Assembly (NCBI GenBank): GCA_963833095.1 | Contig: CAWHWQ010000001.1 | Coordinates: 224,001 to 288,000, forward strand | Reading direction: 5' to 3' | DNA: 64,000 bases | Source of the DNA: Vulcanimicrobiota bacterium | GTDB lineage: Bacteria > Vulcanimicrobiota > Vulcanimicrobiia > Vulcanimicrobiales > Vulcanimicrobiaceae | Shown: in pieces, positions 56,443 through 64,000 of the stretch | Layout of the letters: the number at the start of each line of letters is the position of its first letter | How positions within the stretch are numbered: position 1 is the first letter of the stretch | The notes under the pieces: model-generated | Seen by the model: only the letters and a program-made list of their open reading frames with translations | Told to the model about the DNA's origin: nothing | The model's database searches: none | Program-made: the position numbers and the translations under genes

Positions 56443-56504
56443 AATGCGTGCGGCGCATGGAAAAGACAGCCAAGTCGCTACGCGACGGAAGGACGGATTT
56501 TCGT

Positions 56505-56885
56505 ATGATCAAGCGCCTTTCTATCGTGTTCCTTACAGCACTTGCGATCGTTTTTCCGCGGCCTGCATACCCCGGCACGTACCCGAGCATCGAGGTGGTG
56601 AACCAATCGCACCACTGTGCTTGGGTCACCTTCTACCACAAGGGCTACCTAAACGTCGATTGGACGATGCAAAAGAATCAGTGGTGGCCCGGTTTTCTCG
56701 GACCGGGATGGCATACCGGCTATGCCAGCACCAACTCGTGGCGAATGAAAGTGCTTGTCGAGATCATGCCCGGCATCGATCATTGCGGGGGCAGCCGCAT
56801 CGCCGCCGTGGATTTCATCACGGACGTGAACGGCGATAAGGTGTATCTGCGGCAGACAAACGGCCGCTGGACGCTCACTCGATAA
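56505..56885 (+). CDS. Small secreted hypothetical protein
   Basis: Signal peptide MIKRLSIVFLTALAIVF; beta-rich, Trp-rich, two Cys; GAAGGA RBS. Confidence 0.7.
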   Translation: MIKRLSIVFLTALAIVFPRPAYPGTYPSIEVVNQSHHCAWVTFYHKGYLNVDWTMQKNQWWPGFLGPGWHTGYASTNSWRMKVLVEIMPGIDHCGGSRIAAVDFITDVNGDKVYLRQTNGRWTLTR

Positions 56886-56962: not shown

Positions 56963-58576
56963 GTGCCAGAGCCGGAAGTCAAAGACTCCATTTTCCTACA
57001 CTGCGGGTGGCGTACGGCGGGAACATGGCTATGGTCACTGTTCCGGTCACGACCCGATGTGATGGCGTTTTACGAGCCTCTCAACGAATCACTCGCAACG
57101 GCAACGCTTCGCGACATTGCGGCGATGCGCCCAAGCGCCACCGACTCGAGACATCCTGACCCAGAACGCCCGTACTTCGGGGAATTCGCCCCGCTGATTC
57201 CAACACGGGGGTGCGGTGTTACAGGGTTTCCGGTTGGTCTCTCTTACGATCATTTTCTCGCCGGCCCGCAGACGAATCTCCCCGGCCTCGCAAGCTATCT
57301 CGACTCTCTGGTACGGTTCGCACGCGCCGACGGAAAGACGGCGGTGATGAAGCATTGCCGTACGCTTGGACGAGTTGCGTGGATGCGCAAACACTTTCCC
57401 AACGCGTGTCATATCGCGGTGGTACGCTCCCCGTGGGGTCAGTGGCTCTCGGGGTGGCGAATCTACAAGGCTTCCGGTAACGCGTACTTCATTACCAAGC
57501 CCCTAGAGATACTCGCGCTGTATCACGATCATCCGCTCTTCGCGCGTGCCTTGAAGGCGCTCCACATCTCACCCGAACTTTTGAACGGCGCCGTGAAAAG
57601 TGCGACCAGAAGGGGGTTAAGCCGGGCCGTTCCGGCCACGACGACACCTGACATATTCTATCGAGCCTTCCTCGCTTTTTGGATCAGCACGACCTACAGT
57701 ACGTTGTTGGACGTTGGAGACGTCATCGATTCGGATCGGCTGGGCGAATCGCAAGCCTATCGCCGTGAAACCGAGCAGATGATTCAGGTACGCAGCGGGT
57801 TAGCGATCGATCTTAGCAATGCGCATCCTCTCCCCGCCGCCGGGTCGGTTGTTGGAATATCGGGCGCCGATATCGAGCGTTGGCATACCGAAGCGATTTC
57901 AGCGCTGCCGGCCTTTGCCGAGGTCGATCGTACAATTTCAGAGGCGCATCATGCTACTGTTTCCGCGTTGATCCGGGCGAAGCTGGCTACGATCATATCC
58001 CTAACCCCGGATCGACCTGCCGTTCCGAGTAGCATCGTCTCCCGGGCGTCAAAGATCATGCGTTGGCCAATCCGGTATCGAGACGCCGTGAAACACGCCT
58101 CGAGCCGGTTCTGGTTCTGCATTGCTGCGGCGGTCATCGCGGCCGCGACCGCCGATCCTTTGGTCGAAGGCGTCTCGAACGCCGGCTGGCTTGGGCGGGG
58201 TTCGTACACCGACCATTCGAGTCTCATCGTCCTGCCTACGCTTGCCCTGGGCGCTATAGTTGTCGTGCTCTACTTAGTGACGCGTGTGCGCAGCGATCTG
58301 TCTCAGGGCTCCGAGGATGCGCTGCGCATGCCGGTCAGCCGTTTGCTCGTACCGATCTTCGGGTTGCAGCTCGCGCTGCTCGCGTCTATGGAGACGCTCG
58401 AACAGATCGTCGTTGCCGGCCACTCACTTGGCCGTACGGTTTGGCTGGGCGGCCCCATATGGTTCAGCCTAAGCGTCCACGCGGCGGTCTGCGTCGCCGT
58501 CAGTTTCGGTCTGGCGAAGGTGCTGCAGCCGTGGACGCGCACGACCGTGCGCATCATCCGGCACATGCGCGCGTAG
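56963..58576 (+). CDS. Sulfotransferase-fold protein in frame with a C-terminal multi-TM domain
   Basis: FLHCGWRTAGTWLW (5'-PSB-like), FYEPLNE, VVRSPWGQWLS (3'-PB-like); about four hydrophobic segments after ~58088. Confidence 0.7.
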   Translation: MPEPEVKDSIFLHCGWRTAGTWLWSLFRSRPDVMAFYEPLNESLATATLRDIAAMRPSATDSRHPDPERPYFGEFAPLIPTRGCGVTGFPVGLSYDHFLAGPQTNLPGLASYLDSLVRFARADGKTAVMKHCRTLGRVAWMRKHFPNACHIAVVRSPWGQWLSGWRIYKASGNAYFITKPLEILALYHDHPLFARALKALHISPELLNGAVKSATRRGLSRAVPATTTPDIFYRAFLAFWISTTYSTLLDVGDVIDSDRLGESQAYRRETEQMIQVRSGLAIDLSNAHPLPAAGSVVGISGADIERWHTEAISALPAFAEVDRTISEAHHATVSALIRAKLATIISLTPDRPAVPSSIVSRASKIMRWPIRYRDAVKHASSRFWFCIAAAVIAAATADPLVEGVSNAGWLGRGSYTDHSSLIVLPTLALGAIVVVLYLVTRVRSDLSQGSEDALRMPVSRLLVPIFGLQLALLASMETLEQIVVAGHSLGRTVWLGGPIWFSLSVHAAVCVAVSFGLAKVLQPWTRTTVRIIRHMRA

Positions 58577-58715
58577 CACGTGGCACTTCGAAAGCAGTGC
58601 TTGCGCCGTGATCGGCAGTCGCGTACGCGAACGCCGGTCGCGTGTCGCACGGTCGCGGCCGGATCGTTCATCTGACACGCTGCCATTCTTCCTCGATTTT
58701 CGAAAGAATCACGGG

Positions 58716-59261
58716 TTAGGGCAGGTCGGAAAGGTCGTCTACATCGGTATAGGGCCAAGCTTCCTCGATCGTCAGGGTGCGCCGTGTCAACCCGGGATGT
58801 TCGCGCACTTTGGAGATCGGCTCATTGTCCGCCAGCTTTGCGATCAGCGCACGAGCGCGTGCCGAAAAATAGACCGGATGTCCGGGCGTGCCGTCGGACC
58901 GCATGGGATGGACGACGTCGGCGTCCTCGGCCGCAGCGGCGACGTCGGCGACGTGATGTGGTTCGATCAGCAGCAGGTCGGCGGGAAGAACCAGGATCGG
59001 CCGTTCCGGTCCAATCGCATCGTTGGCGAGGCGAAGCGAGTGCGCCATTCCCCGTTCCGGCTCGCGATTGAGAACAGCATGCGTTCGTAGCGCGCGAGCA
59101 ACGGGCTGCGTCGCCTCGCTGCACACGACGACGGTATCAAAGGCGCCGGCGGCCCGGATCGCGCGTTCGACCAGCGTGTCGTTTTCCTCGAGCTTGTGAA
59201 GCAGCTTTTGCGATCCGAACCGTTTCGATTCCCCGGCCGCAAGCACAACGACGGTGAGCAC
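58716..59261 (-). CDS. MobA/MocA-like nucleotidyltransferase family protein
   Basis: VVLAAGESKRFGSQKLL, GMAHSL, LPADL, GHPVYF, DVDD. Confidence 0.88.
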   Translation of the reverse strand: MLTVVVLAAGESKRFGSQKLLHKLEENDTLVERAIRAAGAFDTVVVCSEATQPVARALRTHAVLNREPERGMAHSLRLANDAIGPERPILVLPADLLLIEPHHVADVAAAAEDADVVHPMRSDGTPGHPVYFSARARALIAKLADNEPISKVREHPGLTRRTLTIEEAWPYTDVDDLSDLP

Positions 59262-59266
59262 CGTTC

Positions 59267-60811
59267 TTACAACGGCTCGCCGATCGCCGCTTGCGCCGCA
59301 TGGACGAGCACGCCCGACGCGATGAGTTCGCGCGCCGCTTCAATATCCGGCGCGGGCACGCGATCGGTTGTCCATGGCGCGATGCGCGCTCGCGCGCATT
59401 CATAGGCAGCGTGCGTGCCGGCGCCCGACTTGAGCGGCCGGCGAAAATCCGTCGCAGCTAGCGCGCCGAGAAGCTCGCAGGCAAGCGCACCTTCCACGTT
59501 GTCGAGCACACGGACGAGATTGTTGGCTGAGGTCATGCCCATACTTACGTGGTCTTCCTGTCCAGCCGAGGTGGGAATTGAATCAACGCTCGAGGGCCAC
59601 GCCAAACCCTTGTTGTCGTTGACCAGCGCAGCCGCCGTATATTGCACGATCATCAGACCGGATTGCAAGCCCGAGCGCCCGGTGAGGAAGAGCGGCAGCC
59701 CGCGATCCTCGGCGTTGAGCAAGAGATAGAGACGCCGCTCGCCGATCGAAGCAAGCTCGCCGATCGCCATCTTGAGAAAATCGATCGCCAGCGCAATCGG
59801 TTCGCCATGAAAGTTTCCGCCCGAGAGAAATTCACCGTCCTCGGGAAAGACCAGAGGATTGTCGGTGACCGAGTTGGCTTCGGTTTGCGTTACGCTACGG
59901 GCATACGCGATCGCGTCGCGTACCGCACCATGCACGACGGGAATGCACCGGAACGAATACGGATCTTGAACGCGGCCGCACTCGCGATGCGAGAGCATAA
60001 TTTCTGAGCCGGCGAGCAACACCCGAAGATTTGCCGCGACGCGTCCTTGCCCCGGATGCGGGCGCAAGTCGTTGAGGCGCCGATCGAAAACGCGGTCAGT
60101 GCCCAAGAATGCTTCGAGCGACATCCCACCGATCACGTCGGCCGCCGCCGCCAAGCGTTGCGCCCGCAAGACTCCAAGCGCCGCAATGCCGGTCATGACT
60201 TGCGTTCCGTTAATTAGCGCGAGGCCTTCTTTGGGACCCAGCGTCACGGCGCGAAGGCCGGCGCGTTCCAGGGCAACTGCGCTGGGCAACCGCTCACCCT
60301 TAAAGATCGCCTCGCCTTCGCCGATCAGCGTCAGGGACATGTGCGCCAGCGGTGCGAGATCGCCACTCGCGCCCACCGAGCCTTGGCATGGAACCACCGG
60401 GGTGACACCGCGATTGAGCAGTTCGGCCAAGAGGTCGAGCGTCTCCAGCTTCACGCCCGAATGCCCGGCCGCGAGTGAGTTCACGCGTAACACGCCTGCC
60501 GCGCGCACCAAGCGCGCGTCGAGCGGCGCACCGGTTCCAGCTGCGTGCGACCGCACCAAATTTAACTGCAAGGCGGCAGCATCTGCGGGTTCGATTTGCA
60601 CGTTTGCCAGACGGCCGAAACCGGTCGTGACTCCGTAAATTGCATGTCCGCTTGCAAAACGCTCGTCGACGAACGCGCGCGCCCGGACGACGCGCTCGCG
60701 CGCAGCGGCCGCGATCGTGACCTGGGCACCGCCGGCGACGGCTTCAATTGCCTCGAGACTCAAGTGGCGGCCGTCGAGTTCGACCGGCTGCGCAAAGACC
60801 GTTTGTGACAT
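59267..60811 (-). CDS. hutH: Histidine ammonia-lyase
   Basis: YGVTTGFG, GSVGASGDLAPL (MIO), KEGLALINGT, VQDPYSFRC, SGGNFHG, QEDHVSMG. Confidence 0.97.
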   Translation of the reverse strand: MSQTVFAQPVELDGRHLSLEAIEAVAGGAQVTIAAAARERVVRARAFVDERFASGHAIYGVTTGFGRLANVQIEPADAAALQLNLVRSHAAGTGAPLDARLVRAAGVLRVNSLAAGHSGVKLETLDLLAELLNRGVTPVVPCQGSVGASGDLAPLAHMSLTLIGEGEAIFKGERLPSAVALERAGLRAVTLGPKEGLALINGTQVMTGIAALGVLRAQRLAAAADVIGGMSLEAFLGTDRVFDRRLNDLRPHPGQGRVAANLRVLLAGSEIMLSHRECGRVQDPYSFRCIPVVHGAVRDAIAYARSVTQTEANSVTDNPLVFPEDGEFLSGGNFHGEPIALAIDFLKMAIGELASIGERRLYLLLNAEDRGLPLFLTGRSGLQSGLMIVQYTAAALVNDNKGLAWPSSVDSIPTSAGQEDHVSMGMTSANNLVRVLDNVEGALACELLGALAATDFRRPLKSGAGTHAAYECARARIAPWTTDRVPAPDIEAARELIASGVLVHAAQAAIGEPL

Positions 60812-60829
60812 GGATCAAACGTACTTCCG

Positions 60830-60880
60830 AGTGGATAACCCGACGCCTGCCGTGCATAACCGCAAAAAACTTGTGGATAG
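60830..60880. promoter_or_regulatory. Array of three DnaA-box-like 9-mers at 21-bp spacing
   Basis: AGTGGATAA (60830), CGTGCATAA (60851), TGTGGATAG (60872); each has one mismatch to TGTGNAWAA (reverse complement of TTWTNCACA). Confidence 0.65.
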
Positions 60881-60905
60881 TATGTGGGTGAGCGCGCGCG
60901 TGCCC

Positions 60906-60934
60906 TTGAAGCGCCAAAGACGCGGTGCTACCAT
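60906..60934 (+). promoter_or_regulatory. Sigma70-type promoter firing into the hutH-WYL intergenic region
   Basis: TTGAAG-17 bp-TACCAT with TGn extension. Confidence 0.65.
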
Positions 60935-60940
60935 CACTTC

Positions 60941-61142
60941 ACTTCGAATTCATCGAAGGGCGACGCACGTATCGGTCGCGATCGAAAGCACTACGTGTGA
61001 TGGCTGCGCTGGTAGCCATCCCACGGCGACGATCGAACCGCCGTCGACGTCAGTTGGGCTCTCCCACCCGGGAGCCCGATAGGCGACCCCGGTGCGCGAA
61101 TACGTCGAAATCCGCTAGCTACACGCTAGCGGATTTTGTTTT
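60941..61142 (+). ncRNA. Candidate ~200-nt structured small RNA of unknown family
   Basis: Bounded by a promoter and an intrinsic terminator; hairpins at 60999-61020 and 61048-61085 contain G-U pairs valid only on the + strand; no credible ORF or RBS. Confidence 0.65.
61108..61142 (+). terminator. Intrinsic terminator (may also serve the convergent WYL gene)
   Basis: AAATCCGCTAGC-tacac-GCTAGCGGATTT followed by TGTTTT. Confidence 0.85.
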
Positions 61143-62160
61143 ACGCGTGTACGCCGGCCGCGCTGCCGTTGCTCGAGTACTTACTTGCTATTTCTTTGGT
61201 GAGCGTTGCGACGCGGTCGCGGACATCGGGCGGACCGAGAATCTCGGCCTGCGCGCCCCAGCCCAATACCCACCGCGCAAGTTCGTCGGCATCGCTCACG
61301 CGATATTCGATCTCGACGCCGCCGTCATCCAAACGCTCGATCTGGCGCTCGGCAATGACGCGCGCGGCAATCGCCGCCTTTGCGACGCGGGAGGCGAAGC
61401 GCACGCGCACGGGCGTTGCCGGCGCTCCGTGCATCACGCCGCTGATCGAATCCGAGGCAAACACATCGACGTCAAAATCGTGCGGCTTGGTGAAGGTTTG
61501 CGCGGTCACGTGCACGTCGCTGACGTTATCGATCGCGAAGACGCGCTTATCGTGACGCGCATGATCGTACGCAACGCAGTAGATGCGACCGGAACTCACG
61601 ATGAAGCCGTACGGGTCGGCTTCGCGCCTGCTGCGAGTCCCTTCTTTGTCCTGATAGACGAATTGCACGCTGCGTGAGGAGCGCTCGGCGGCGGCAAACA
61701 GACTGAACGCGCGCTCGCCGTGTTCGTCGAGCTGAATTTCGGAAAGGCGAAACGAGACCGGTGATGGCGCATCGACCTGCGCGCGAACGGCGTTGCGCGT
61801 GGAGCCCAGCAGCTTGTCGGTAATCTCGTCGATCGACGCGCCGATTGCGCCGCCGATCGAGGCGCCGAACGAACGCAAGGCGACCAAACCGAACAGCTCG
61901 CCGTTCGAGAGATCGAGGCGGCGCAGGCTGTAGCCCGCGGCAAAGCGATACGCGTTGGTCGCACGGTCGAAATACCAGGGGAAACCGGCATCGGCCAGCA
62001 CCGCAAGGTAGCGGCGCAGGCTGCGGGTGCTCGGGCGCTTGGTGCCCTCGGCGATCCGGTCCTTGAGGCTTTCGAAGGAGTGCCGTCCCTCGTCGATAGC
62101 GCTCAAAAGCCGGACCAGCAGCACGATCTTGGGTTCCGTTGTACGTTCCACTGATTCCAT
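61141..62160 (-). CDS. HTH-WYL-WCX transcriptional regulator (PafB/YafY-like)
   Basis: N-terminal HTH STRSLRRYLAVLADAGFP; WYL domain FVY...READPYG...IYCVAYD...RVFAIDNV; WCX ELARWVLGWGAQAEILGPP. Confidence 0.92.
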   Translation of the reverse strand: MESVERTTEPKIVLLVRLLSAIDEGRHSFESLKDRIAEGTKRPSTRSLRRYLAVLADAGFPWYFDRATNAYRFAAGYSLRRLDLSNGELFGLVALRSFGASIGGAIGASIDEITDKLLGSTRNAVRAQVDAPSPVSFRLSEIQLDEHGERAFSLFAAAERSSRSVQFVYQDKEGTRSRREADPYGFIVSSGRIYCVAYDHARHDKRVFAIDNVSDVHVTAQTFTKPHDFDVDVFASDSISGVMHGAPATPVRVRFASRVAKAAIAARVIAERQIERLDDGGVEIEYRVSDADELARWVLGWGAQAEILGPPDVRDRVATLTKEIASKYSSNGSAAGVHA

Positions 62161-62261
62161 ACTCTAGCGTAGATCGTCGCGTCGTGGTGTGCCAACTGCT
62201 CGGCCTAGTGCTCAAATTTCAATCAATTCGGAGGCTAGACAGCCGTGTTAGAATGGACGCC

Positions 62262-62879
62262 ATGCTCGACGTCGCCGTGCCCCCCCAGGTCGCAGCCGAT
62301 CTCGCCGCTATCGGCCGGTTCGCCGCCGCGCGCGGCTGGGTGCCCGCGACCAGTGGAAATTTCTCGTGCCGCGTCGATGCGACCCATGCCGCCGTCACGC
62401 GCTCGGGGATCGACAAGGGAAACATCCGCCCCGAGGACCTGATCGTTGTGCCCCTCGCCGGGGAGCTTCCGGCCGGCGTCTCAGCCGAGACACCGCTGCA
62501 CGTCGCCCGCTATCGCCGTGAAGCCGGGGTCGGGGCGATCGTCCATGTCCATACCGTCGCCGCCACCGTCCTTTCGCGCGCCGATGCCGCTCGCGGGTTC
62601 GTCGAACTCGACGGCTTCGAAATGCACAAGAGCCTGCGCGGCGTAACCACCCACGAGAGCACGCTGCATCTGCCGATCTTTGCCAACGATCAGGACACCA
62701 GCCGCCTGGCCGACCGCATCGAGAGCAGCTTGGCGGCCGAATCGCCGGTGCCCGGATACCTGCTGGCGGGACACGGGTTGTACGCGTGGGGAGCCACGAT
62801 GGCAGATGCCCAGCGCCATCTCGAGGGACTCGAATTCTTACTCCAGTGTTCATTAGAGGAACGGAGACTACGCCGATGA
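62262..62879 (+). CDS. mtnB: Methylthioribulose-1-phosphate dehydratase
   Basis: GWVPATSGNFS, SGIDKG, SAETPLH, HVH, GFEMHKSLRGVTTH, GHGLYAWG. Confidence 0.95.
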   Translation: MLDVAVPPQVAADLAAIGRFAAARGWVPATSGNFSCRVDATHAAVTRSGIDKGNIRPEDLIVVPLAGELPAGVSAETPLHVARYRREAGVGAIVHVHTVAATVLSRADAARGFVELDGFEMHKSLRGVTTHESTLHLPIFANDQDTSRLADRIESSLAAESPVPGYLLAGHGLYAWGATMADAQRHLEGLEFLLQCSLEERRLRR

Positions 62880-63433
62880 CCACGACCCTAACCAGCACGC
62901 TTCGCGTCTATGACGACGAGCGTCCCGAGACGCTTGTGCTTGAGACGAGCGACGGCGAGCGCATTGCCGACGAGCTGCGCGCGCTCGGCGTGCGCTTTGA
63001 GCGTTGGGCCGCAGACGCGCAGTTGCCCAAGGGCGCCGACCAGCAAACGGTCATCGATGCGTATCGCCGTTCGATCGACAAACTTGTCGCCGAGTGCGGC
63101 TATCAAACGATGGACGTGATTCGTCTGGAACGCGGTACGCCGAACACCGAGCCGATGCGCAAAAAGTTCCTCGACGAACATCAACACTCTGAAGACGAAG
63201 TGCGCTTCTTCGTCGAAGGCCGCGGCGCGTTCTACCTTCACGTCAACGGACGCGTCTATCAAACCGTCTGCGTCAAGGGCGACTTGATCAGCGTCCCGGC
63301 CGGGACCAAGCACTGGTTCGATATGGGCGCGGATCCCGAGTTCACAGCGATTCGCCTCTTCAACAACCAGGAAGGCTGGGTCGCCAACTTTACCGGCGAC
63401 CCCATCGCAAGCGGTTTCCCCAAGCTCGATTAA
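62876..63433 (+). CDS. mtnD: Acireductone dioxygenase
   Basis: GVRFERW, KFLDEHQHSEDEVRFFVEGRG, SVPAGTKHWFDMG, GWVANFTG. Confidence 0.96.
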   Translation: MTTTLTSTLRVYDDERPETLVLETSDGERIADELRALGVRFERWAADAQLPKGADQQTVIDAYRRSIDKLVAECGYQTMDVIRLERGTPNTEPMRKKFLDEHQHSEDEVRFFVEGRGAFYLHVNGRVYQTVCVKGDLISVPAGTKHWFDMGADPEFTAIRLFNNQEGWVANFTGDPIASGFPKLD

Positions 63434-63498
63434 CAGGGTTCAGCTTTGCTGAACCCGTGGTGTTCGGGCTTCGCCCGATCCGCAGCGAGGATGCGATA

Positions 63499-64000
63499 TT
63501 GAAGTTTAGAGCTCGTACGGCGCTGATCGATATCGAAGGAACGATCGGCTCGATCGCTTTTGTGCGTGACGTGCTCTTTCCGTTTGCCGCGCTGCGCATG
63601 GATGCATACGTGCGCGAGCACGAGCGCGATCCCGCGGTGCGCGAGATCCTCGACCAAACCGCCGTCGAAGCTGACGTTGCGCGCGGCGACCTCGACGGAC
63701 TGCTCGAGGCGCTGCACGACTGGGCCGATCGCGACGTCAAGGTGACGCCGCTCAAAGCGCTCCAGGGATTGATTTGGGTCGAGGGATTCGAATCCAGCGG
63801 TATCCAGGGCCACCTGTATCGCGATGCGATCGACGCGCTGCGCCGCTTCTACGACGCCGGCGTCGCGTTATACGTCTACTCGTCGGGCTCGGTTCCCGCG
63901 CAGAAGCTGCTCTTCGGTCACAGCATCGCGGGCGATTTACTTCCGCTCTTTTCAGGCTTCTACGACACGACGATCGGTCCGAAGCGCGAAGCCTCTTCCT
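63499..64000 (+). CDS. mtnC: Enolase-phosphatase E1 (acireductone synthase); runs off the window end
   Basis: TTG start; LIDIEGTIGSIAFVRDVLFPFA, DRDVKVTPLKALQGLIW, YVYSSGSVPAQKLLFG, DTTIGPKRE. Confidence 0.95.
   Translation, partial: MKFRARTALIDIEGTIGSIAFVRDVLFPFAALRMDAYVREHERDPAVREILDQTAVEADVARGDLDGLLEALHDWADRDVKVTPLKALQGLIWVEGFESSGIQGHLYRDAIDALRRFYDAGVALYVYSSGSVPAQKLLFGHSIAGDLLPLFSGFYDTTIGPKREASS

Follow-up and report, generated by a model that had tools for sequence, protein, structure and literature searches.

Positions 60906-61142 of the window (the whole stretch of 64,000 nucleotides that was analysed, G000:C1:224001-288000, from an assembly that is 81% complete) lie between hutH and the gene of a WYL-WCX regulator, and they raise the question of whether this gap holds a gene of its own and, if so, how its product acts. 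The preliminary description had proposed that a structured RNA of a new family is made from the + strand, a proposal borne out by covariation, by a + strand bias in folding and by the absence of any Rfam match. Sequence comparison confirms that 60940-61142 (+), in an Eremiobacterota (Vulcanimicrobiota) bacterium, is a stand-alone gene for a structured RNA, and it almost certainly encodes a functional RNA. The features of the locus are collected in Table 1.

Table 1. Features of the locus, in window coordinates.
Feature	Position	Strand	Description
hutH, histidine ammonia-lyase	59267-60811	-	Pfam PF00221; divergent neighbour, outside the module
DnaA-box-like site, distal (about -110)	60830-60838	+	1 mismatch to the DnaA box; position in a minority of 89 promoters
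DnaA-box-like site (about -88)	60851-60859	+	2 mismatches; box-like at -90 to -87 in 75/89 promoters
Double DnaA box	60872-60891	+	two 9-mers with a gap of 2 bp here and mostly of 3 bp in homologues
Promoter, housekeeping-sigma type	60906-60934	+	-35 TTGAAG, 17 nt, extended -10 TG-n-TACCAT; conserved in homologues
ncRNA gene	60940-61142	+	170-nt structured core 60940-61109 plus terminator; start predicted at ~60940-60941; covariation, homologues, RNA-library contigs over 60953-61105
P0, 5′ hairpin	60942-60958	+	97.6-98.7% of cells paired; U-A to G-C/C-G swaps in 14/44 diverse sequences
P1 hairpin	60960-60979	+	loop 60967-60972 provides the 5′ strand of the pseudoknot; 93-94% paired; A-U to G-C in 17/89
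P2 and variable arm	60980-61034	+	P2 60980-84/61030-34; all 5 P2 pairs with both-side changes; arm capped by hairpin 60999-61020
P3-P4-P5, long irregular hairpin	61039-61094	+	P3 61039-43/61090-94; P4 61048-54/61079-85; P5 61057-63/61070-76; loop 61064-69; 87-96% paired, many both-side changes
Pseudoknot 3′ strand	61100-61105	+	pairs with 60967-60972; 90.6% paired; both-side changes in 4/6 pairs
Intrinsic terminator	61108-61142	+	stem 61108-61137, U-rich tail to 61142; adjoins the WYL stop codon
WYL-WCX transcription regulator, DriD/PafBC-like	61141-62160	-	convergent neighbour, candidate partner; Pfam WYL and WCX; PDB matches E ~1e-12 to 1e-5; synteny

The nearest relatives of the WYL protein are found mostly in Eremiobacterota/Vulcanimicrobiota records, some of them labelled Ca. 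Aquilonibacter or Baltobacteraceae. Beyond the WYL gene, and diverging from it, lie methionine-salvage-type genes (class II aldolase, ARD; window 62259-64000, +) whose linkage is confined to closer relatives. Two further open reading frames of the window, at 56963-58576 (+; 537 aa) and 56448-56885 (+; 145 aa), have no Pfam match, and the 537-aa frame appears to consist of two joined parts.

Boundaries and fold of the RNA gene

The promoter elements first described (TTGAAG at 60906-60911, a 17-nt spacer and TG-n-TACCAT at 60926-60934) are present in the sequence, as is the described terminator, with a stem at 61108-61137 and a U-rich tail ending at 61142. A generic consensus scan listed neither element, the promoter reaching 8/12 matches at a threshold of 9, so that the support for both comes from conservation. 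Promoter, start region and terminator all recur in homologues: TTG, TG and TAnnAT are kept in their promoters with a variable spacer, the terminator stem changes in sequence while its pairing is preserved, and a terminator-like hairpin occurs in 88/89 homologues under a loose rule applied without shuffle control. The terminator may serve both the ncRNA and the WYL genes. Relative to dinucleotide shuffles, folding beats chance and favours the + strand (z = -6.1 versus -3.2 on the - strand with the terminator, -3.9 versus -1.6 without it), in agreement with the folded + strand RNA that had been claimed. The claim that the locus lacks a credible open reading frame also holds, since none is conserved across 89 homologues; their lengths distribute over all three reading frames, and the best start-codon column is common to 37/89 sequences on the + strand and 45/89 on the - strand.

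The structure, drawn by hand from the alignment, differs from the fold outlined earlier: covariation supports two 5′ hairpins, a loop-to-3′-end pseudoknot and two dispensable arms. In 58 MAFFT-aligned sequences with a mean identity of 60%, 88.8% of cells are paired and 31/47 pairs carry both-side changes. This covariation was equalled by 0/500 shuffles (tests which here, as for the pseudoknot and the DnaA boxes, overstate significance because the sequences are related), and slid controls are at most 41% paired versus 89%. In 89 sequences fitted to a covariance model, both-side changes are found in 39/47 pairs; scores are low (34-39%) for one P3 pair and for some pairs of the arm, in part because of misalignment. 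The pseudoknot is 90.6% paired in these 89 sequences although the model did not contain it, and its strands swap wholesale between lineages (ACGUAU/AUACGU, ACGUG/CACGU, UGUAG/CUACA, GACGGUA/UACCGUC, GCGAGAA/UUCUCGU). Cognate loop-tail pairs score 5.37 versus 4.58 for permuted pairs (maximum 4.81 of 500, n = 116) and 5.78 versus 4.22 in a chosen diverse set of 30, with a score of 3.5 or less in 9/116 sequences. RNAalifold applied to the diverse alignment A4, in which MAFFT misaligned the pseudoknot strand, recovered P0 and P1 only. An alternative in which the P1 3′ strand would instead pair, in nested fashion, with the 3′ end was rejected in favour of P1, because P1 is 93.1% paired with both-side changes in 2/5 pairs, versus 84.8% and none for the nested alternative.

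Three elements of the earlier fold fared less well. The closing helix that had been drawn and the proposed base of the long arm do not covary and are unsupported, with 59.6% of their cells paired in the 58 sequences and 90-489 of 500 shuffles doing as well, depending on the measure. The capping hairpin of the long arm (60999-61020) is present. The hairpin credited with an exposed CCACCC loop is present together with its loop (61064-61069), but this loop is not conserved: a CCACCC-type sequence occurs in 27/89 sequences, the P5 loop elsewhere reads UUCACC, GCAA, GAAA and similar, and the C-rich form is lineage-specific. The P2 arm is shrunken or absent in five loci (L018, L058, L092, L095, L331), and the whole P3-P4-P5 domain is absent from a 104-nt form (L301). 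Since either arm can be lost, giving natural forms of 104-141 nt, the core consists of P0, P1 and the pseudoknot. A genuine but partly deleted copy was excluded from alignment A3; this paralogue (L285, G169:C2:611909-612104) is without the P4-P5 segment and retains cassette, core and terminator.

Transcript data add a hint. Among 24 RNA runs from 21 studies that share a small part of the window, four (X1-X4) were examined. In X4, contigs mostly at least 95% alike pile up over 60953-61087 to depths in the thousands (maximum 11,400), the WYL gene being uncovered and hutH reaching about 1-2 at one of its ends; X3 contributes a single contig over 60953-61105, and in X1 and X2 the RNA and its neighbours are covered alike, at about 10. 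Because metatranscriptome contigs give no strand, ends or level, they hint that the RNA is abundant and discrete.

The contigs of X3 and X4, from two studies, share the start base 60953, beside adapter sequence and within the P0 loop. Such a common end, a compact pseudoknotted core and a few near-invariant bases are what a ribozyme or ligand-binding RNA with a chemistry of its own might display. This reading is nevertheless highly unlikely. The common start may be a library effect, as 5′ base loss in library preparation would yield the same end; the near-invariant bases are few (2 invariant columns in 44 diverse sequences), and no Rfam ribozyme matches. HDV-like ribozymes are built on a nested double pseudoknot with P3 and P1.1. 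By inspection the present RNA is without these two elements and has only 1-4 nt between the pseudoknot strand and the P1 3′ strand, on which ground, together with the absence of an Rfam match, an HDV-like ribozyme was rejected.

Distribution and copy number

As far as the genomes searched go, the RNA is found in one order of mostly uncultured soil bacteria. BLAST located the stretch in 16/17 other genomes of the genus, and a profile matched 73/80 loci retrieved via the WYL protein, 4 of the 7 misses having less than 130 nt of flank. Applied to the same sample of 151 phylum genomes, three covariance models matched 67, 62 and 69. The last of them matched 67/81 genomes of the host's own family (f1), one being a chance coding match, and five further f1 genomes were found via the promoter cassette or the WYL neighbour (G148, G159, G162, G172, G181), which brings the total to 71/81. 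In the remaining 10/81 (G021, G076, G090, G094, G111, G126, G145, G166, G178, G186), some of them fragmented and some 95-99% complete, the RNA was not found, and it may thus be dispensable. The sister family f2 has the RNA in 5/5 genomes, though all covariance models missed it, so that deeper homologues may be missed as well. The last model did not find the RNA in 67 other phylum genomes (10 of family f3 and 57 others). The one match among the 10 f3 genomes was judged to be chance, as were weak R1 matches in L283 and L287-L291 on inspection; weak R3 matches in 8/19 f3 genomes were also rejected, the 10 inspected, from 7 genomes, being without cassette or terminator and resembling coding DNA.

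Outside assembled genomes of the order, metagenomes yielded the RNA in 40/80 loci among the matches listed, 39 with the promoter cassette and one cut by a contig end. Plasmid and phage collections gave no blastn match to the RNA, and viruses and plasmids gave 0 promoter-pattern matches and 0/3 real core-pattern loci. At least 80 viral pattern loci gave only weak matches, the best, at 25.9 bits, on a locus pre-selected by pattern. That locus (viral contig L222:599-717) matches the 5′ core and 3′ tail; no promoter cassette was found there, and the match is probably due to chance. In six records labelled Alphaproteobacteria, Acidoferrum/Acidiferrales or Verrucomicrobiia (L033, L034, L038, L040, L057, L078), this WYL gene occurs at 68-93% identity together with the RNA; these are likely to be mislabelled or mixed bins.

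The copy number per genome is 1-3 or more. In many genomes a diverged second copy is found at another place, next to nadA/OPT, yqeY-nfeD or tauE, and in one lineage a copy lies between a radical-SAM gene and mutS. Tandem arrays among 80 loci comprise 2 copies at 10 loci and 3 copies at 2 loci, and genus g31 has 2-3 copies. Each tandem copy comes with a promoter and a terminator of its own, and one such copy (L086) no longer has the DnaA boxes. In the host assembly, 81% complete, no second copy was found by nhmmer, a promoter HMM or R3, and 7/11 genomes of the same genus have two cassette matches. Two identical inverted copies with a broken WYL gene between them, at a contig end (L282, G167:C6:325730-327510), are probably an assembly artefact. 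None of the claims depends on the unpublished genomes G036 and G059, and the results do not need the single alignment row that may share an assembly with one of the two.

The upstream DnaA-box cassette and the WYL neighbour

The RNA had been suggested to form a module with DnaA-like boxes upstream, and this association is upheld, as the boxes travel with paralogues to unrelated loci. Between -110 and -40 of 89 promoters, DnaA-box-like 9-mers with at most 2 mismatches number 215, versus 11.8 in shuffles (maximum 21). They lie in a single orientation at about -110, -88, -67 and -56, at least one being present in 87/89 promoters; each of 10 control ncRNA promoters has 0 or 1. The first 9-mer of the double box occurs with at most 2 mismatches at -69 to -67 in 73/89 promoters, and the second is weaker (18/89 at the same cut-off). 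The pattern of cassette plus start was found in 84/196 genomes of the order, one of them unpublished, with 1 match for the reversed control, and the cassette accompanies the paralogues beside nadA/OPT, yqeY, tauE and mutS.

The double box recurs upstream of dnaA in the host genome and in three of four relatives with flank (G000, G002, G006, G023), and the fourth relative has perfect DnaA boxes upstream of dnaA in a different arrangement. In the host assembly, dnaA matches fall in three separate frames (G000:C8:193934-194421), probably through assembly frameshifts; four relatives have long open frames. A related cassette stands upstream of minC in three genomes (G000:C2:301700, -; L315, L319). 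Taken together, dnaA, minC and the ncRNA suggest a small putative DnaA regulon. DnaA of E. coli prefers boxes 2-3 bp apart, and the nrdA, polA, purH and rne promoters share with the present cassette a pair of 9-mer boxes at that distance (PMC11317965). The cassette likewise holds a double box 2-3 bp apart near the promoter, its second box often weak. In Table 1 of the same source, protein genes and origin-control loci are given, whereas here the cassette precedes an ncRNA (PMC11317965). DnaA very probably binds the ncRNA promoter, and we strongly infer that it controls transcription of the RNA; the boxes are degenerate, and another factor could bind them.

A set of three or four oriented DnaA-like boxes that all lineages retain and that duplication has multiplied could also mean that the DNA itself is the functional element, a titration site of the datA/DARS type or an origin, with the RNA incidental. 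Strong covariation at the RNA level speaks against this, and the locus lies about 1.1-1.4 Mb from dnaA in three relatives (G002, G006, G070) and shows no change of GC skew in the host genome, observations that also led to rejection of an origin of replication at the locus. The reading is extremely unlikely.

The second proposed member of the module, the convergent WYL gene, presents a mixed picture. The RNA or its promoter lies downstream of a WYL orthologue in 85/95 loci whose flank measures 1400 nt or more, with protein identities as low as 45%; this count is biased upward because some of the loci were found through the RNA. hutH is near the WYL gene in 66/95 loci with room and is missing from the deepest lineages in which the RNA persists. 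The synteny is thus real and outlasts the link to hutH, but it is not obligate, given paralogues distant from any WYL gene and 10/95 WYL loci without the RNA. Families f1 and f2 have the WYL orthologue as well as the RNA, and neither was found in f3, the orthologue having been sought in 13 f3 genomes with the query used. According to the available part of one source, Tyr168, Arg178, Tyr192 and Arg204 are ssDNA contacts of DriD, and DriD binds ssRNA more weakly than ssDNA (PMC9186387). Equivalents of these four residues occur in 106/106 sequences of the WYL family, while DriD Arg207 is replaced by Ala in 105/106 and the next Arg by Asn, Ser or Gly, so the ligand of this family may differ from that of DriD.

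These observations are what would be expected if the RNA were the ligand or decoy of the convergent DriD-like regulator, through which DnaA status would feed a DNA-damage regulator: the two genes co-occur, they stay together while hutH is lost, and the pocket is kept apart from the Arg207 change. Yet that change is also present in the genomes shown that have no RNA, dispersed copies have no WYL neighbour, one copy (L337) is co-oriented with the WYL gene, DriD itself has the weaker affinity for ssRNA (PMC9186387, as far as available), and a common terminator together with old synteny would explain the linkage. A functional pair of RNA and WYL regulator is possible, synteny would suffice as an explanation, and the ligand-or-decoy reading as a whole is rather unlikely.

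Proposed action and comparison with known RNAs

The reading that we prefer, with a probability of roughly 0.5, is that DnaA sets the transcription of a stand-alone structured RNA, which works in trans by binding a protein. DnaA would bind the double box just upstream of the -35 element and would most likely activate the promoter, the sign of the effect (activation or repression) being a guess from position; the RNA level would consequently follow DnaA activity, in the way envisaged for dnaA and minC, whose upstream regions have the cassette in common with it. Since helices, the pseudoknot and a few core bases are conserved and the exposed loops are free to vary, the RNA would act through its shape and not through mRNA pairing. 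An RNA acting in this way would be expected to titrate or scaffold a protein, and its gene copies would contribute dose or tuning. One candidate for this partner is the DriD-like WYL regulator. A stronger version, in which two checkpoints are coupled by DnaA driving an abundant RNA as dedicated ligand or decoy of that regulator, is unlikely; if true, the status of the replication initiator would tune the DNA-damage response through an RNA. Control by DnaA, if true, would provide a testable RNA output of the replication initiator.

Paralogous genes arranged behind the sites of one regulator also occur in other systems. Qrr1-5, RsmX/Y/Z and CsrB/C are sibling sRNAs and protein sponges, with several paralogues behind the sites of one regulator, and in this the present genes resemble them; the difference is that the alignments contain neither a repeated loop motif nor a conserved seed and that a pseudoknotted core is kept instead. 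A base-pairing sRNA with sibling copies, Qrr- or CcnA-like and acting on cell-cycle mRNAs, would account for sibling genes behind one transcription-factor cassette, for the intrinsic terminator with its U tail and for the C-rich loop in the host's genus. It is very unlikely, as no single-stranded seed is conserved, the loop varies, and the conserved P1 loop is occupied by a pseudoknot whose sequence swaps wholesale between lineages. CcnA lies at the origin and pairs with mRNAs; the present RNA, by contrast, is far from dnaA and without a conserved seed. The two would be alike in being ncRNAs tied to replication and the cell cycle, CcnA of Caulobacter modulating CtrA and GcrA, as described in the available part of its source (PMC8959179).

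Comparison with known families gave no counterpart. Searched with E values up to 10 over 58000-64000 and 60900-61160, Rfam 15 gave no match at the locus, 6S and Ms1 included, and for a divergent member (L298) it returned only chance matches on the terminator. The earlier view that SRP RNA, tmRNA and RNase P RNA do not match was correct: SRP RNA and tmRNA lie on other contigs of the host genome, and RNase P RNA lies elsewhere in 5/5 relatives. No RNase P RNA was found in the host assembly itself, probably owing to a gap in an 81% complete assembly. A riboswitch or 5′ leader was rejected because the terminator faces a convergent gene and the neighbours of the paralogues are unrelated. No Ro60 (TROVE), the partner of Y RNA, was found in the host genome, again at 81% completeness.

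The RNA resembles 6S RNA (RF00013) and Ms1 RNA (RF02566) in size and in being a stand-alone gene with a terminator, and differs from both in having no covariance-model match and no 5′-3′ closing rod with a central bubble. RNAs of several unrelated kinds bind bacterial RNA polymerase, and an abundant RNA binding the core enzyme or holoenzyme, in addition to an ordinary 6S RNA, would suit a stand-alone gene of ~200 nt with hinted abundance. This alternative is nonetheless quite unlikely, and the suggestion of a divergent 6S-like RNA made in the preliminary description does not stand, in view of the multi-branched pseudoknotted fold, the lack of any RF00013 match at the locus and a separate 6S-like gene. 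For Ms1, 0/5 genomes gave a match above cut-off and none at the locus. In three relatives, sub-threshold RF00013 matches of 27-46 bits (L117-L119) fall at another locus; the corresponding host sequence, at G000:C8:113826-114014 (-), is 94.7% identical to the relatives' match and was missed by Rfam, and folding of the G006 copy gives a closed rod that has a central bubble.

Within a mostly non-subscription literature, searched in its main texts, no ncRNA target of DnaA, no paper linking DnaA to a small RNA and no paper on RNA motifs or ncRNA in Eremiobacterota/Vulcanimicrobi were found; supplements could list this RNA. Its class and fold are apparently undescribed, and its mode of action may prove to be of a known kind, for example that of a protein sponge. 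To our knowledge, few bacterial RNAs are widespread and conserve a tertiary fold yet belong to no known family, raiA and OLE being open problems of this kind. Homology with raiA, suggested by look-alike sequence words, was rejected because there is no cross-match in either direction: model R2 does not match a true raiA locus (L297), and RF03072 (gathering threshold 101 bits) has 0/5 genomes above cut-off, its best score being 12.8 bits elsewhere. As far as the available parts of the sources tell, raiA has a 5′-3′ closing P1, two pseudoknots (PK1 and PK2), a conserved linker between PK1 and P6, and a single locus (PMC10861870, PMC12968392); closing P1, PK1/PK2 and linker are not present in alignments A1, A3 and A4. 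On the same partial accounts, the two RNAs share a length of ~200 nt, a stand-alone gene, a pseudoknotted fold, optional peripheral stems and the lack of a known biochemical function, and raiA is abundant and trans-acting, properties that are hinted at for the present RNA (PMC10861870, PMC12968392). Unlike raiA, the present RNA has two local 5′ hairpins and one loop-to-3′-end pseudoknot, and it is multi-copy behind DnaA boxes. Two handles that raiA and OLE lacked would thus be at hand, namely a regulator, DnaA, predicted from the promoter, and natural minimal forms of 104-127 nt, which define the core and suit structure work.
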